Source of the DNA: Nitrosopumilus sp.
Lineage (GTDB): Archaea > Thermoproteota > Nitrososphaeria > Nitrososphaerales > Nitrosopumilaceae
Direction of reading: 5' to 3'
Length of the DNA stretch: 64,000 bases
NCBI GenBank assembly: GCA_965205425.1
Contig: CBDBGZ010000009.1
Location: 1,056,001 to 1,120,000 of the forward strand
Shown: piece after piece, positions 53,847 through 64,000 of the stretch
Position numbering within the stretch: the first letter of the stretch is position 1
How the letters are laid out: each line of letters begins with the position of its first letter
The notes under the pieces: model-generated
What the model was told of the DNA's origin: nothing
What the model saw: the letters and a program-made list of their open reading frames with translations, nothing else
Database searches by the model: none
Translations under genes and position numbers: made by a program

Positions 53847-54817
53847 GGCCTTGTAGAAACCATCTGATTTTAACCCAATTGTGATACATTTTAGCTAATT
53901 TAGATCCATTAGGATTGTATTTGCAGATTACAGTATGGTCTCATCATACGTCAAAATGTGCAAAACACTACTCAATATAATCACCAGATGCAGAATTCCC
54001 AGGTTCTTACATCCAAAATCAAATCATATCTATTCTGTTTGGACACATCTCATACTCTTGGCAATACGACAGTACGAATCAAAGAGTTATAGAAGATTTA
54101 CAGAATTTTTAGAAGAATGTGTAGGAATTCAGGAATATCTTGGTTTGTCTACCATTCCACATTACACCACACTACAAAAGGCAGCTGCAAGACTGGAAGG
54201 AAATCTGTTACATAAAATGTTGCAGGAATTCATTTTGTACAAAAAAGTCAGACTGGTTCTAGCTGGAATTGATGGTAGCGGATTCAGTTACAGTACAGCA
54301 TCATACTATTATACAAAAAGAGTACAGTTACGCAGGAATTTCCTAAAAGTTGTTGTTTGTGCTGACATGAATACACAGCTTGTTTGCTGTGTCATGACAC
54401 ACCACAACATGCAACATGATAATCCTGATTTTCTGCCATTGTTGTACAAAACCAACAATATTGTTCCAGTTGATATTGTGTTAGGTGACATGGGTTTTGA
54501 TGATGAGAATAACCATGTTGGTGCAGAACAGATCAACACAGCTGCAATGATTCCAACTCGATATAGAACAGTTCCAATTTACAGAACCAGTGGAATTCAC
54601 AGAAAGGAGATGAAGAGGAACTTTCCTGTACAATTGTACCATCAGAGAAACAAATCTGAAACAATCTTTTTTGTGATCAAACAGATAATGTCAGGAGATG
54701 TCACATCAAGAAATGTTACAACTCAGGACAATGAGATGTTGTACAGGTTAATTGCATACAATGCTTACAGGATTAGAAAATTAGATTTTGTTATTTTATT
54801 ATGGTTTCTACAAGGCC
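53847..54817 (+). mobile_element. IS5-family element A (971 bp)
   Basis: 17-bp perfect TIR GGCCTTGTAGAAACCAT; 9-bp TSD TTTGCCATG at 53838-53846 and 54818-54826. Confidence 0.93.
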
Positions 54818-54909
54818 TTTGCCATGTTCTCTTTTGCAAAACTCCAAAACCCTTCGATTCCATTTATGTACACATCACCACTCCCAAACATCTTGCTGTG
54901 GTCTATTGA
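53935..54909 (+). CDS. DDE transposase (IS5/IS4 superfamily); reads through the right TIR
   Basis: PHYTTL, IDGSG, GDMGFD, YHQRNKSET. Confidence 0.92.
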   Translation: MVSSYVKMCKTLLNIITRCRIPRFLHPKSNHIYSVWTHLILLAIRQYESKSYRRFTEFLEECVGIQEYLGLSTIPHYTTLQKAAARLEGNLLHKMLQEFILYKKVRLVLAGIDGSGFSYSTASYYYTKRVQLRRNFLKVVVCADMNTQLVCCVMTHHNMQHDNPDFLPLLYKTNNIVPVDIVLGDMGFDDENNHVGAEQINTAAMIPTRYRTVPIYRTSGIHRKEMKRNFPVQLYHQRNKSETIFFVIKQIMSGDVTSRNVTTQDNEMLYRLIAYNAYRIRKLDFVILLWFLQGLCHVLFCKTPKPFDSIYVHITTPKHLAVVY

Positions 54910-55311
54910 GAGATGTTTGTAGGCGTTGAAAACTAGCGAATCATATCCTCTCCACTTGTCCGTATACACAATGCTTCCTTTCTTTACTTTCTTGATGGTG
55001 CTTGCAAGAAGAGTTTTAGCTTTGACATTGTTTACAATCTCAACGTGAACTTTTCCCTTTCTTTCCAGTATGCCAAATACGATGGTCTTGTTCTTGGCAC
55101 CTCTGCCACGATTTCCCTTTCTTTTTCCTCCAAAATAGTCGCCTCGTCAGCCTCAATTTCCCCTTTTAATTTCTTGTCTGATTCTGCCAAGTGATACAGT
55201 ATTGAATATCTGATACAATCAAATGCATTTAGTGCAAGTTGGATAACTGACATCTGCTTCTCTAACTGCACATCTTGCACTAATCCCAATATCAAATAAT
55301 TTGACTAGGGC

Positions 55312-56337
55312 GGGTGTGTCCTAAAAGTAGACAAATATAACAATTTTATTCAATTCTGTAACATATTGATCGCATGGAATCACAACAACTATGCAAAACA
55401 AATCAAAAAGAGACTGGCAAGTATATGGCACATATCGCAAGGATGAGGAGATTCTATTCTTGGAAAAAGTAAAGAAGACAGTTTGGAGTATGGATACACC
55501 ATGGGAACCAAAGACAGGCGGACGTCCTGCATTTCCAACAAAAGCAAAGATAATGTGTGCAATGCTAAAGGTAAAGTTTGGATTGGATTATCGTTCCATG
55601 GAGTCCCACTTGAGATCAAGGCCGGATCTGTTGGAAATAATGGAGCTCAAAAAAGCACCAAGCAAGACTGTCATTAATGACAGTCTAAAAAGAATTCCAA
55701 TGCCTTATTTGAAAAAGGTAAACGCAAAACTCACAGAACCAATCAAAAAAAAGACATAGCTCCTGACAGTTCAGGATTTGGTACCAAAAGATGTGAGGCT
55801 TGGTTTGACATCAAGACAAACACGCACAAATCCAAGAAATTATATCTAAAACTGCACATCCTAATTGCAATACAGTCCATGGCAATAGTATCTTTTGACA
55901 TTACTAAAGGAACTCGTGGTGATGCACCAATTCTCAAAAAATTAATCAAAGACATTCCAAAGGGAATTGGTGATTTTTGTGCAGATCCTGCATATTTGTC
56001 ACGAGACATTTGCAATATGGTAGCTACTCTGCAAAAGATACCATACATCAAACCAAAGAAGAACACAGTTAGAAATCCCAAAGGCTCTGCATCATGGAAA
56101 AAAATGATAACATTATTCCAGGACAATCAAGATGAATTTGACAGACATTATCACAAGAGGTCACTTGTTGAATCAGTATTTGCAGTACTCAAAAGAATCT
56201 TTGGAAATAGCTTGTCATCAAAAAACAAGTTGGTTCAAAGAAAAGAGTTGGCGTTGCGTGTAATTTGTTACAACATACGAGTTGTTAATTTGATGGGGGT
56301 TACAAAACATGTTAGAGGATAGTTTTAGGACACACCC
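55312..56337 (+). mobile_element. IS5-family element B (1026 bp)
   Basis: 15-bp TIR GGGTGTGTCCTAAAA; 9-bp TSD GACTAGGGC at 55303-55311 and 56338-56346. Confidence 0.93.
55391..56322 (+). CDS. DDE transposase in two ORFs joined at an A8G -1 slippery site
   Basis: ORF1 ends IKKKT; the -1 frame gives DIAPDSSGF...LKLH...ADPAY...YHKRSLVES. Confidence 0.85.
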
Positions 56338-57505: not shown

Positions 57506-57925
57506 TTAGTTTTGAGACATCTTTAGGATTGTATCCCAAATTGACTTAGGTACAGGCATTACAGATAATCTTGAAATTCTGATCAGTTCCCAATCTTTGA
57601 ATTTTTTCTCTTTTTTCATTTCATCAAGAGTTACTGGACGTTTTAATGATTTTTTGTATTTTACATCTACAACTATGAAACGTTCAACATCTTCTTTGGG
57701 ATTCGAATAAGGTTTTGAAGTTACTTGCATAATTCCTACGGCTTGTCTTTCATCACCTGTATGATAAAATAATACCAGATCTCCAGATTTCATTTCTCGC
57801 ATATGCTTTAGTGCAAGATTATTGTGAACACCATCCCAAACAGTTGTTTTTTCTTTTTTTAGTTGTTCAAAATTATAGCCTCGTGGACCACTTGGTTCTT
57901 GTTTTGCTAACCAATAATTTGTCAT
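57506..57925 (-). CDS. EVE domain protein
   Basis: YWLAKQEP, WDGV, GDLVLFYH, RLSVMPV. Confidence 0.93.
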   Translation of the reverse strand: MTNYWLAKQEPSGPRGYNFEQLKKEKTTVWDGVHNNLALKHMREMKSGDLVLFYHTGDERQAVGIMQVTSKPYSNPKEDVERFIVVDVKYKKSLKRPVTLDEMKKEKKFKDWELIRISRLSVMPVPKSIWDTILKMSQN

Positions 57926-57970
57926 TTCATTTTCTGTATAATTATCTGGGTTTAATGGTTTTGAAAATAG

Positions 57971-58160
57971 ATATGTTCCCCGGTTCTGACTCGCACAAAA
58001 TCATTGGTCATAGCCATACGCCTCCTCGCGTTCTAAAACCGGGGTTGCCCATAATGTAGCACACCTGGGTGAATTAGAAATCACTGGTATCATTACGATC
58101 GACTCATCCTAATCCGTCTGCATGCCTGCTCTTGGGCGATTAATTATGGAATTACTCCTA
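57971..58160 (-). ncRNA. Candidate structured ncRNA: two hairpins, 3' ACA (H/ACA-like)
   Basis: GC-rich intergenic island; stems GCCCA/TGGGC, GGATTAGGA/TTCTAATTC, CCCCGGTTTT/AGAACCGGGG followed by AACA. Confidence 0.6.
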
Positions 58161-58213
58161 CTAAAAACCATTAAGGGAATTATTTATCAAAAATGAATTT
58201 AGGATAAATGATT

Positions 58214-59854
58214 TTAATTTTTAAGAATAGAGTCAGATAATGATATTTCAAATCCTACTACAGGAACTCGAATTTTATAATTTTCTATAATTTTGGAATC
58301 AATTTTTCCAATAATTCCAATAGGTACATTATTCAAAAGAATTGATGCACAATGACCTTGTTCAAAAGTAGGATTAGTGGAAGTTTTTGTTTCAATTTTA
58401 ATTCCAAATCCAATATTCAATGCAGATTGAATAATAGATTTTATCTCAGTAAAATTTGCATCTTTATGAGCACTAATACCAGAAAAATTAATTTTTTCAC
58501 TAATTGGATTTTCAGTAGCAAAAACAGTTCCTGTTTCAAATATTTTTTGAGGATAAGATTCATGAATATTTTTTGAAAGATTTTCTAATAATCCAGGAAG
58601 TATAGTGTCACGTAAAATTGTATGTTCCTGACTTTTTGAATCTAATACAGAGATAATTTTTGTTGAATCTCTATTCGTCATATCATATAATACTCGTTTA
58701 CTAGTCAAACTTGAATTAACGGCTTCAAGATAACCTAATCCAATCATAGTTTTGTCTAATGATTTTATTTGTAGTGAGACAGGATTTATTTTTCCTATAG
58801 TTTGTGATGGAGACATAGTAGGTTCAAGATTTTGAATTCCATATCCCAAAGCAACTTCTTCTACTAAATCCATAGGTCCAAAAATATCAAATCTATATGC
58901 AGGAACTGTACAAATTATACTAAGTCCTTTAGATGTTGCATCTAAACGAGATTTTTTCAAACATGAAATAATTTTAGATGTTTTAAGATCCAATCCAAGT
59001 GTTTGATTGATTAATGAAGAATTAACAATAAGTTTTTTAGAATCAAGTTTTGGTGATGAATTTTTTGAGCCAGATATTTTTACTGATTCTAATGTAAATC
59101 CAGCACTTTGTAAAATTGTGGCTACAACTGCAAGCATGTCTTCAGCGTCTTCTTTATTGATTCCAGTTACCTCAACAAAGAGATTCTTTGTTTTAGTTGT
59201 AACAGTTGTGACTGCTGCATTGATAATTGGTGGGAAAGATACAGTATTTTGATCATTATCAACAATTAGAGGTACTTGAGATGATTGTCCAAGTAACGAA
59301 CCATAATCTTGCCCCACATCAGTATTTGTCAAAATTTTAGAAATAGAGATTTCTTCTTCAGAATTTAGAGGTACAAATTTGTGATTTCTATTTGTCGTAG
59401 TGTAGATTAGAGGAAATGAAACCTTATCCAAATCATGAATGCCAATTGAAGATTTTTTTCTTTTTCTTCCGATTCCGAAATGAAGATCTTCTTGCATGGT
59501 CATCAATTGCTTGATAGTTTTATCATCAATTTTTCCATTCTTTGCAACAATTCCAGTTACAAAAGGACGTATCTTAGAAACTCCAGACTTTACAGAAATT
59601 GAATATTTGTTTGATTTTTTTATATTGAATTTTACAGTTCCAGTTTTAATTCCAAGTAATCCTTGTAATCCAAGTGCAATTCCAAAATCAGTCGAGTAAT
59701 CAGGTCTATTTGGACTATATTCAATTCTAACTTGATCTTTATCTTCAGATTCTATGTCTAAACCGAGAAATGGTAAAGAATCAGAAATTTGTTTTTTTGA
59801 TACTTTGCCTACTAATTTTTGAAGGCGGGAATAAGATAATTCAACTACTGGCAT
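58214..59854 (-). CDS. pheT: Phenylalanine--tRNA ligase beta subunit
   Basis: PNRPD, RKKSSIGIHD, SFPPIIN, YRFDI...DLVEEVA. Confidence 0.95.
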   Translation of the reverse strand: MPVVELSYSRLQKLVGKVSKKQISDSLPFLGLDIESEDKDQVRIEYSPNRPDYSTDFGIALGLQGLLGIKTGTVKFNIKKSNKYSISVKSGVSKIRPFVTGIVAKNGKIDDKTIKQLMTMQEDLHFGIGRKRKKSSIGIHDLDKVSFPLIYTTTNRNHKFVPLNSEEEISISKILTNTDVGQDYGSLLGQSSQVPLIVDNDQNTVSFPPIINAAVTTVTTKTKNLFVEVTGINKEDAEDMLAVVATILQSAGFTLESVKISGSKNSSPKLDSKKLIVNSSLINQTLGLDLKTSKIISCLKKSRLDATSKGLSIICTVPAYRFDIFGPMDLVEEVALGYGIQNLEPTMSPSQTIGKINPVSLQIKSLDKTMIGLGYLEAVNSSLTSKRVLYDMTNRDSTKIISVLDSKSQEHTILRDTILPGLLENLSKNIHESYPQKIFETGTVFATENPISEKINFSGISAHKDANFTEIKSIIQSALNIGFGIKIETKTSTNPTFEQGHCASILLNNVPIGIIGKIDSKIIENYKIRVPVVGFEISLSDSILKN

Positions 59855-61239
59855 TTTGTGGCACTCCTTAACCATCCTAAATTATTATTGTAAAATTCTC
59901 TTACATCATCTAGATCATATTTTAGCATAGCAATTCGTTCGATTCCTCCACCCCAAGCTAAAACAGGTTTGGTAATTCCTAGAGGTTTTGTTACTTCAGG
60001 TCTAAAAATACCCATTCCAAATAATTCAATCCATTTTCCCAATTTTTCATTGTACACCATCGTTTGAAGGGATGGTTCGGTATATGGAAAAAATGTTGGC
60101 CAAAATTTAATTTTCGTAATTCCTATTCGTTTGTAAAATTCACGTTGAATTCCCATTAAATTTCTTAGATTAGCATCTTTTCCAACAACTACTCCTTCAA
60201 TTTGATTAAATTCAACAAGATGTTTGTAACTAACCTTTTCGTTACGGAATACTCTACCCAATGAGAAAATTTGTGCCTCATCAGGTTTCTGTTCAGCTAA
60301 ATGTTTGATAGTAACACAAGTCGTATGTGTTCTTAGAACCATTTTTCTTGCTTCGTTAATATCCCATTGATATCTCCAATTCTTTTTGTGAGATTCAGAA
60401 ACTTTTCTAATTTGTTCGGGTGTGCCAATTTTTTTTGCATTAATTCTATCTAGATAAAACGTATCTTGTAATTCTCTTGCAGGATGATCTTGTGGAGTGA
60501 ATAGAGCATCAAAATTCCAAAAGCTTGATTGTGTCATGTTACCAAGAATTTCGGAGAAACCAAGTGTAACAAATATTTCTCGAATTTCATCTATTGTATC
60601 TTTAAGAGGATGAGTTCTTGCAACAAAAACTTCTGGAACTTTAGCTTCTACATCAATTCCACCAGTTGAATCAGAAAGAATGATAGATTTTGCAGAATCT
60701 GATAAAATAATTTCCTGAGTCTTTAATACATCTTCAATAATAAAATCAGGTCGTTTCAAAAGCGAAGATAAATCATCTACATCAATTTTATTTTTGGGTA
60801 ATTTTTCATTTCCAATAAGTTTGAGAGTTTTTTCTCCAGGAAGTTCTGATGGGGAATTTTTAAGGATGATTTGATCATTTGATGCTACAACCCAATTATT
60901 TTTTCTAGCTAAACCCATTGATGGTCCAAAGACAAAACCTAATTCTTTTTGTAAATCAGATAATTTTTTGGGTCCATTCTTTAGTAAATTTAACAATCTT
61001 CTTTCAGGTAATCCTTTTTCAAAAGATTCAATTCCATTCTTACCTAAGCTAATGACACTTGATTTAGATTCATTTACAATTGCCAATTCTTTCAATCTGA
61101 GCCATTCAATTCCTCGTCTAATTTGATCAGGTGAAAGTTGTGTAGATTTTTCAAGGGAATCAGGAGTTTGTTTTTGAATATCTCGTAGAGAGGTAATAAT
61201 TTTTTTTTCAATTTCATGAAAAACTTGCGACAACAGCAA
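59845..61239 (-). CDS. pheS: Phenylalanine--tRNA ligase alpha subunit
   Basis: FWNFDALFTPQDHPAR, LRTHTT, FPYTEPS. Confidence 0.96.
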   Translation of the reverse strand: MLLSQVFHEIEKKIITSLRDIQKQTPDSLEKSTQLSPDQIRRGIEWLRLKELAIVNESKSSVISLGKNGIESFEKGLPERRLLNLLKNGPKKLSDLQKELGFVFGPSMGLARKNNWVVASNDQIILKNSPSELPGEKTLKLIGNEKLPKNKIDVDDLSSLLKRPDFIIEDVLKTQEIILSDSAKSIILSDSTGGIDVEAKVPEVFVARTHPLKDTIDEIREIFVTLGFSEILGNMTQSSFWNFDALFTPQDHPARELQDTFYLDRINAKKIGTPEQIRKVSESHKKNWRYQWDINEARKMVLRTHTTCVTIKHLAEQKPDEAQIFSLGRVFRNEKVSYKHLVEFNQIEGVVVGKDANLRNLMGIQREFYKRIGITKIKFWPTFFPYTEPSLQTMVYNEKLGKWIELFGMGIFRPEVTKPLGITKPVLAWGGGIERIAMLKYDLDDVREFYNNNLGWLRSATKCQ

Positions 61240-62823: not shown

Positions 62824-63933
62824 CTATCTAGGAAAATATTTACTCTTTTTCGATTTTGGTCTTGATCTGTCTTCGGATTGTTTTGGCGTAGGTTCTCTAA
62901 TTTGGTTACAGTTTAAACAAAATACCTTTAATTCTTCTCTAGCAAGATCTGGTGACGAAATATATTTTCCCCAGGAGGCAGCATCACCACCACGACCAGA
63001 ATTATCAGAAGTGACATTTTCAGAAATTGGACTTATTCCTAATGCTCTTTCATCGTTAAAACCACAATTGGAACAGGTTTTTCCACCTAAAATTTCATAT
63101 AATTTTTCTTTAATCGTTTCAAAAAATTTGTCTGAACCACCTGAAAAGAAACTTTCTCGTTTTCTCAAAAATTTATCATTTCGTGGCTTTCTAGATCTTG
63201 AATTATCTCTACTAGATTCTCGTCTAGGCGAAGAACGTGAACCTCTATCATCTCTGGAATATCTATCATTTCCTGAATCTTGTGGTTTGTTTTGTCTGAA
63301 ACAATCACTACAGTAAACAGGTTTGTTACTTCTTGGAACAAATGGCACTGTACATTCAGTACCGCAATCAGAGCAAGTTACAGTTGTAGATTCATCTCTA
63401 CGATCGTTTCGTGAACCTCTATCATCTCTGGAATATCTATCATTTCCTGAATCTTGTGGTTTGTTTTGTCTGAAACAATCACTACAGTAAAGTGGTTTAT
63501 TATTTCTTGGAACAAATGGCACTGTACATTCAGTACCGCAATCAGAGCAAGTTACAGTTGTAGATTCATCTCTACGATCGTTTCGTGAACCTCTATCATC
63601 TCTGGAATATCGTGAACCTCTATCATCTCTGGAATATCGTGAACCTCTATCATCTCTGGAATATCTATCATTTCCTGAATCTTGTGGTTTGTTTTGTCTG
63701 AAACAATCACTACAGTAAAGTGGTTTATTATTTCTTGGAACAAATGGCACTGTACATTCAGTACCGCAATCAGAGCAAGTTACAGTTGTAGATTCATCTC
63801 TACGATCGTTTCGTGAATATCTTGAACCTCTATCATCCCCAGAATTTCTAAAAGAACGAGATGTATTATTATCACGTCTTGAATTTCTTCCATCTGTTTT
63901 TCCATCTGAATACTTTGATTTGTAGAGTTCCAT
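62824..63933 (-). CDS. Triple CxxC-x17-CxxC zinc-finger protein with R/D/S linkers and C-terminal degenerate HNH-like domain
   Basis: Three CSDC...VPFVP...YCSDC modules; C-terminal GGKTCSNCG...FCLNCN. Confidence 0.85.
   Translation of the reverse strand: MELYKSKYSDGKTDGRNSRRDNNTSRSFRNSGDDRGSRYSRNDRRDESTTVTCSDCGTECTVPFVPRNNKPLYCSDCFRQNKPQDSGNDRYSRDDRGSRYSRDDRGSRYSRDDRGSRNDRRDESTTVTCSDCGTECTVPFVPRNNKPLYCSDCFRQNKPQDSGNDRYSRDDRGSRNDRRDESTTVTCSDCGTECTVPFVPRSNKPVYCSDCFRQNKPQDSGNDRYSRDDRGSRSSPRRESSRDNSRSRKPRNDKFLRKRESFFSGGSDKFFETIKEKLYEILGGKTCSNCGFNDERALGISPISENVTSDNSGRGGDAASWGKYISSPDLAREELKVFCLNCNQIREPTPKQSEDRSRPKSKKSKYFPR
63235..63836. repeat. Three near-identical ~180-bp coding repeats with an internal 27-bp tandem unit (RYSRDDRGS)
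   Basis: CGTGAACCTCTATCATCTCTGGAATAT occurs three times in tandem at about 63584-63664 and once in each of the other linkers. Confidence 0.93.
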
Positions 63934-64000
63934 TGATAGAGAATTTGAGATCAATTGGTTATAGATACTTAGAGCTTTGATTTGTGCCTAGAATAAAAAA

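Follow-up and report, generated by a model that had tools for sequence, protein, structure and literature searches.

The closest described relatives of the RNA studied here are the box H/ACA RNAs HgcG, Pab40, Pf7 and Afu4, which carry three H/ACA motifs, and sR-h45 of Haloferax volcanii, which the accessible parts of two papers describe as a double stem-loop H/ACA sRNA (PMC7075261, PMC2584109). In the portions of the literature open to us, motif 2 of Pf7 and Afu4 is predicted to target the equivalent of 23S rRNA position 2586 (PMC2377435), the Haloferax hairpins are regarded as homologous to stems II and III of Pf7 (PMC2584109), and the first stem-loop (SL1) of sR-h45 modifies the third U of GGGUUUA, corresponding to 2586 (PMC7075261). 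A third described RNA, sR148 of Sulfolobus islandicus, uses one 3' guide strand for both 1917 and 1923 (the yeast-2266 equivalent) of helix 69, as shown by deletion; according to the accessible part of that report, 1923 is a real archaeal site for which a short one-sided duplex is enough (PMC11077068).

We analyzed a 64,000-nucleotide stretch of a Nitrosopumilus genome, hereafter the window, in which a prediction made from the letters alone had placed a GC-rich noncoding RNA upstream of EVE-domain and Lrp genes. The original prediction read it as an undescribed H/ACA pseudouridylation guide or a new structured RNA. Our results support the former reading, because the RNA combines the anatomy of the class with covarying stems, with pockets that are conserved and can pair with 23S rRNA, and with a remote likeness to HgcG/Pab40; they do not bear out the latter. 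With a probability of roughly 90%, we consider the locus to encode a box H/ACA guide that has two motifs and its own promoter, would modify the peptidyl-transferase center (PTC) and helix 69, and is a diverged member of the lineage of HgcG/Pab40/Pf7 (motifs 2 and 3) and sR-h45. It is a real, deeply conserved and largely expected member of the class and no new kind of system.

The RNA differs from HgcG, Pab40, Pf7 and Afu4 in having two motifs instead of three. It shares with sR-h45 the order of the motifs, PTC first and helix 69 second, and its motif 1 resembles SL1 in having ACCC at the same positions, n+13 to n+10, and a very similar 3' arm of the lower stem. The two RNAs differ at n+14, which is A in SL1 and usually C or U here; in the 5' guide of motif 1, which pairs directly after UN in sR-h45 and two nucleotides further here; in the linker between the motifs, 56 nt in sR-h45 and 2–3 nt here, though long in the relatives L072, L075 and L240; and in an extra outer stem, P0, present here. 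sR148, which likewise serves helix-69 uridines, is without lower stem and ACA box.

Positions in 23S rRNA follow E. coli numbering, anchored on H. marismortui equivalents. The accessible part of the source for these anchors equates H. marismortui 2619/2621 with E. coli 2584/2586 and 1956/1958 with 1915/1917 (PMC2584109).

Results

Structure of the RNA

The RNA core on the minus strand measures 165 nt and has a GC content of 49.7%, compared with 32.5% for the whole window; no 165-nt segment sampled every 10 nt of the stretch equaled it. The GC enrichment noted originally was thus confirmed and the RNA itself upheld, with its length corrected from about 190 to about 165 nt. The minus strand folded at –66.5 kcal/mol (z = –3.09), which 2 of 200 shuffles could match, and the plus strand at –53.4 kcal/mol (z = –1.92), matched by 9 of 200. 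The sole listed open reading frame over the element, at 57811–58059 of the plus strand, encodes 82 amino acids and is antisense to the EVE gene. A covariance-model search found the RNA gene to be single-copy in its own genome.

Both hairpins lie on the minus strand where they had been predicted, at 58137–58047 and 58044–57978, and the AACA noted after the second contains the terminal ACA box (Table 1). Hairpin 1 kept its outline and received a new internal anatomy: it consists of an H/ACA motif (58126–58055) with an ACA box of its own, overlooked before, inside the additional stem P0. Each of the two motifs comprises a lower stem, an internal pocket and an upper stem. P0 is predicted with pair probabilities of 0.96–1.0 and could shield the 5' end of the RNA. 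By eye, stems equivalent to P0 and differing in sequence were seen in distant homologues across the order.

The suggested K-turn potential was also substantiated: the sequence motif of a K-turn with tandem G.A pairs occurs in both upper stems, and its UGA is unchanged throughout the 28 sequences of the family-wide alignment. [quoted passage not shown] For the upper stem of motif 2, energy favors one register, while one compensatory change and 79.8% pairing favor another. When the RNA is unbound, GG in the motif 1 5' guide is predicted to pair with the opposite UC at a probability of 0.84–0.85.

Table 1. Features of the RNA locus and its neighbors (window coordinates)
Feature	Position	Strand	Basis or remark
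Predicted mature two-motif H/ACA sRNA, ~165 nt	57973..58137	-	block conserved in alignments; covariance-model match 57971-58139
Outer stem P0, 5' arm	58133..58137	-	pairs with 58051-58047; surrounds hairpin 1 together with its ACA box
Outer stem P0, 3' arm	58047..58051	-	pairs with 58137-58133
Motif 1 lower stem P1, 5' arm	58120..58126	-	pairs with 58064-58058
Motif 1 5' guide strand, GACGG core	58114..58119	-	complementary to 23S 2590-2594
Motif 1 upper stem P2, K-turn and apical hairpin	58073..58113	-	GA at 58105-58104 and 58082-58081
Motif 1 3' guide strand ACCCAG, n+13 to n+8	58065..58072	-	complementary to 23S 2579-2584
Motif 1 ACA box	58055..58057	-	invariant in 28/28; ANA in 17/17
Motif 2 lower stem P1, 5' arm	58037..58044	-	pairs with 57985-57978
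Motif 2 5' guide strand, AGA core	58031..58036	-	complementary to 23S 1923-1925
Motif 2 upper stem and K-turn	57994..58030	-	GA at 58024-58023 and 58002-58001
Motif 2 3' guide strand GAGUCAGA	about 57985..57993	-	complementary to 23S helix 69, 1915-1922
Motif 2 terminal ACA box	57974..57976	-	conserved in homologues
sRNA promoter candidate	58160..58172	-	BRE-like AATGG 58172-58168; TATA-like T-run 58167-58160
EVE promoter candidate (BRE-TATA), outside RNA	57951..57962	-	downstream inverted-repeat arm
pheT, Phe-tRNA synthetase beta, conserved upstream neighbor	58214..59875	-	Pfam; synteny
EVE-domain gene, downstream neighbor in part of family only	57506..57925	-	Pfam; synteny

Covariation and Conservation

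We aligned 28 sequences from across the family using MAFFT, without fitting them to the structure. In this alignment, 92.8% of the cells were paired and 18 of the 34 pairs had changed on both sides; none of the 500 shuffles matched any of the measures, and all slid controls scored lower. Covariation among homologous regions, proposed originally as a check, thus favored the RNA. A deeper alignment of 17 more distant sequences, with changes on both sides in 13 of 19 pairs, provided weaker support, since 31 of 500 shuffles equaled one measure and the control slid by –1 came near. In the lower stem P1 of motif 1, five of six tested pairs differed on both sides. In the 17 distant sequences the pocket strands were invariant while the stems were 49–68% conserved, an invariance that is partly built in because the pocket words were themselves part of the patterns used to parse the homologues.

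Three family members carry G in place of A at n+15. As none of 201 genomes, many of them without assembled rRNA, had the corresponding variant in its rRNA, the change is a wobble and uninformative, and with this one variant tested in the 201 genomes no compensatory change between guide and target was demonstrated.

Comparison with Known Families

At the Rfam gathering threshold, a search of the 64-kb window returned three tRNAs only, and the RNA itself belonged to no family at that score. Among the six weak matches at E-values up to 10, only HgcG and SNORA62 fell on hairpin 2 in the minus strand; HgcG/Pab40 (RF00064) had the lowest E-value, 0.21 at 13 bits, relative to a gathering score of 77. 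The relative L072 matched HgcG across the model with an E-value of 0.00024 and 28.1 bits, likewise below 77. Remote homology to the HgcG/sR-h45 lineage is likely.

Complementarity to 23S rRNA

The target search covered 1762 uridines in the genome's rRNAs and short tRNAs. The top site of motif 1 was the peptidyl-transferase loop, with 6+5 bp, and that of motif 2 was helix 69, with 6+3 bp or 8+2 to 4 bp, so the originally proposed search for complementarity to rRNA came out positive for both pockets. Shuffled pockets were as good in 7 of 300 cases for motif 1 and 9 of 300 for motif 2; under looser gap rules, the counts rose to 12 and 31 of 300. Next to these modest shuffle tests, conservation is the stronger argument. 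The target stretches were unchanged in the rRNAs of five genomes and, in another set, of two out of three. Among the homologues, the first A of ACCCA in motif 1 is always 13 nt before the ANA/ACA box, and ACGG of the 5' guide is present in every one parsed; distant homologues often lengthen that guide to six to seven pairs. Measured to the ACA box, U2585 is at n+14, U2586 and U1921 at n+15 and U1923 at n+17, with the rule being 15 ± 1.

Motif 1 leaves five target nucleotides unpaired, U2585–A2589, compared with two in the class norm. With a strict two-nucleotide gap, we found no convincing site for it (best score 22 vs. 30 with the five-nucleotide gap). We did not treat the norm as exclusive, because published guides tolerate larger gaps. 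At n+14, C or U is found in 92 of 104 pattern matches and A in eleven homologue loci; because of this pyrimidine, U2585 would be unable to pair with the guide. The accessible parts of published work give rules that favor the 5'-most unpaired U as the modified site (PMC6049503, PMC7075261), and since the pyrimidine leaves U2585 in that position, the odds are about even for conversion to pseudouridine by motif 1 of U2586 or of U2585.

The pockets of motif 2 were compared among 59 distinct parsed thaumarchaeal hairpins, with duplicates dropped and 20 unparsed loci left out; the pair count was permissive and its values are upper bounds. Requiring at least eight pairs, all 59 hairpins fit U1921, 47 fit U1923, 12 fit U1917 (none of them in the genus) and none fit U1915, in contrast to the second motif of sR-h45, which guides U1915 and U1917. 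On U1921 the motif leaves a two-nucleotide gap unpaired, as in the class norm. This canonical unpaired UN makes U1921 the probable substrate; U1923 is a possible additional or alternative site in the family, while U1917 is a poor candidate.

At n+14 to n+11, the consensus of HgcG motif 3 is GUUA and the RNA here has GUCA; the 1915 equivalent is the site guided by motif 3 in Pab40, whereas motif 2 here fits 1921/1923. Among six parsed hairpins from the wider phylum, four with GUUAG fit U1915 with 11–12 pairs, and all six fit U1921. Motif 2 has apparently shifted from U1915 to U1921, and because the GUUA consensus guides the 1915 equivalent and the thaumarchaeal hairpins fit 1921, a U-to-C change at n+12 would account for the retargeting. 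A more far-reaching idea, in our view rather doubtful, is that an ancient two-motif guide was re-aimed as a whole in ammonia oxidizers, the n+12 change moving motif 2 from the U1915 loop to the U1921/U1923 stem and the loss of A at n+14 moving motif 1 from U2586 to U2585. Such re-aiming of motif 2 would exploit the internal ACUCU repeat of helix 69, and that of motif 1 would lead to pseudouridylation of a catalytic PTC nucleotide, U2585.

Two variants were seen on the rRNA side. In L270 (G306), positions 2579 and 1926 of the 23S rRNA are A and C, respectively, and the guide L240 has A and not G at n+8, so that the n+8 pair is lost on both sides, uncompensated. In L086 (G041:C5, about 164811–165552), an insertion of ~750 nt, probably an rRNA intron, is found in the 23S rRNA directly after 1924 in helix 69, beside the motif 2 target.

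Promoters and Transcripts

The sRNA promoter candidate, AATGG followed by a T-run, lies 23–35 nt before the RNA, is conserved in the genus and coincides with the upstream arm of an 11-nt inverted repeat (57952–57962 and 58164–58174). Other genera have a TTAATATT-type box instead at the same distance, about 23–30 nt upstream of the RNA. The downstream arm starts 37 nt before the EVE ATG and fits AA-NNN-WTTAWA, a motif that in this genome is enriched 50–31 nt ahead of start codons (64 occurrences vs. about 10.6 expected). From their positions, the two arms are likely the promoters of the sRNA and of EVE. The inverted repeat had been described as bracketing the unit; it exists, but just one of 29 same-genus loci has it in perfect form (at least 10 of 11 positions in 8 of 29), and our results do not support it as part of the unit. 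The TATA-like GATAAATA is present at 58188–58181 and was rejected as the promoter of the RNA since its stretch is unconserved. A sigma-70 scan was uninformative, the host being archaeal.

In metatranscriptomes, a 169-nt contig (X1) from one of four RNA runs covers 58138–57973 with zero mismatches, though contigs show neither ends nor strand. The search of 4 of 24 listed RNA runs also gave a 223-nt contig (X3) wider than the predicted RNA and a 617-nt contig (X2) that overlaps the RNA in part and extends into EVE. With ends and strand not shown and no DNA run compared, we did not count these contigs as proof of expression; we infer that the RNA is transcribed.

Phylogenetic Distribution

BLAST detected the RNA in 33 of 36 same-genus genomes and in none of the 24 genomes from other families of the order. 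Within the family, 169 of 200 genomes and 24 of 27 genera were matched. A covariance model extended the range to 20 of the 24 other-family genomes, all 20 showing the motifs by eye, and each of the other four yielded one hairpin or more with a second model, giving 24 of 24; additional model matches in G088 and G121 (L099, L100) were dismissed as chance, with the motifs absent. A covariance-model search of 122 non-family genomes of the phylum produced 27 matches, which by eye comprised 22 with motif 1 (most of them also with motif 2), three single motif-2-like hairpins and two chance matches without the motifs (L266, L267). Of at least 114 matches to the motif pattern, 80 were listed, 68 with archaeal and 12 with bacterial record titles; the archaeal ones listed belong to Nitrosopumilus, Nitrosarchaeum, Nitrosotenuis, Nitrosotalea, Nitrosopelagicus, Cenarchaeum and Nitrososphaerales.

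Each motif can go missing, or become separated, independently of the other. Hairpin 2 stands alone behind pheT, with motif 1 absent, in L073, L074, L079 and L101 (genus g26, genomes of 0.8–0.9 Mb), and again alone behind pheT in L249 (G050, 2.8 Mb, one contig), where a TATA-like word directly precedes it; conversely, L242, L243, L247, L258 and L261 have motif 1 without motif 2 nearby. Single-hairpin H/ACA-like RNAs were seen in distant families of the phylum (L262, L263, L265), two of which (L262, L265) have GUCAG in register with motif 2. About half of the genus loci (L005, L009, L012, L014–L017, L020–L025, L029, L030) have ~250 additional nucleotides, which appear to be a small inserted gene, separating pheT from the promoter of the RNA.

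Discussion

The families of Cbf5, Nop10, L7Ae and Gar1 are all present in the genome above cut-offs; together with the anatomy, conservation, covariation and complementarity, their presence is what the computation shows directly. Gar1 has two matches of equal score on different contigs (G000:C4:222782 and C5:16285), representing a duplication or assembly redundancy (contamination figure 5.23%). By the known mechanism of the class, L7Ae would bind the K-turn of each motif, and Cbf5–Nop10–Gar1 would sit on each lower stem and ACA box. Motif 1 would then clamp 23S rRNA over 2579–2594, holding U2585–A2589 unpaired, and modify U2586 or U2585; motif 2 would pair with helix 69 and modify U1921, possibly also U1923.

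An H/ACA-type RNP could instead act as a folding chaperone that keeps the 3' strand of helix 69 and the PTC loop open during assembly and forms little or no pseudouridine, at least through motif 1. The atypical five-nucleotide gap and the pyrimidine that keeps U2585 from pairing would suit such a role, as would the U2586 equivalent being unmodified in P. abyssi, according to the accessible part of PMC2377435. The ACA boxes and the 13-nt spacing are nevertheless strictly retained, as catalysis requires, and large gaps have precedents in the available portions of two reports, with yeast pockets accepting up to six unpaired nucleotides (PMC6049503) and Haloferax SL2 functioning with four (PMC7075261); we regard the chaperone as improbable.

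The gene neighborhood bears on two further explanations. The EVE gene, which is followed by an Lrp/AsnC gene, adjoins the RNA in 28 of 30 same-genus loci, and the 617-nt contig spans part of both, as expected if the RNA served the EVE-Lrp genes as a cis-regulatory leader or as a partner RNA. This adjacency fades to 16 of 36 loci in other genera of the family and 0 of 14 in other families (two with short flanks), whereas pheT stays upstream in 30 of 30, 30 of 36 and 11 of 14 loci, respectively, and in 15 of the 22 phylum loci carrying motif 1. The association with EVE is therefore one of local gene order, and the functional tie suggested originally is not supported; moreover, a promoter-type motif separates the RNA from the EVE ATG and conservation falls on the letters pairing with rRNA, making an EVE leader very improbable. 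A miniature mobile element with 11-nt terminal inverted repeats would explain the perfect repeat in this genome and could draw on the IS transposase genes 1.6–4 kb away. It is refuted by the single copy in this genome and the deep synteny, the locus being constant across the order and beyond, and the repeat is perfect in one of 29 relatives and its arms fit promoter motifs; we give this explanation next to no weight. The pseudouridylation guide accordingly remains our reading of the locus.

A literature search found no description of the RNA in ammonia oxidizers, with most subscription papers lying outside its reach and "H/ACA" unsearchable as a word. The genome paper of N. maritimus reportedly lists small RNAs, and the RNA may already be annotated somewhere. 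The accessible part of PMC4652768 makes no mention of Thaumarch, Nitroso or Cenarchaeum.

The locus supplies an H/ACA guide of abundant marine and soil archaea that falls below the Rfam threshold, and it predicts rRNA pseudouridines at two functional centers, the active center of the ribosome and a subunit bridge. It widens the range of the HgcG/Pab40–sR-h45 lineage across the phylum, and because the lineage spans the phylum and is often still found behind pheT, the guide is probably very old. The main interest lies in this wider range and in two apparent changes of target that can be put to the test, U1915 to U1921 and the choice between U2585 and U2586.

Elsewhere in the window, a cluster of IS transposases (DDE_Tnp_1) occupies 53935–56322, with one gene apparently split (55391–55759 and 55879–56322). 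The minus strand at 62824–63954 encodes a 376-amino acid protein with three treble-clef zinc fingers (zf_Tbcl_2) and RDDRGSRYS-type repeats between them.
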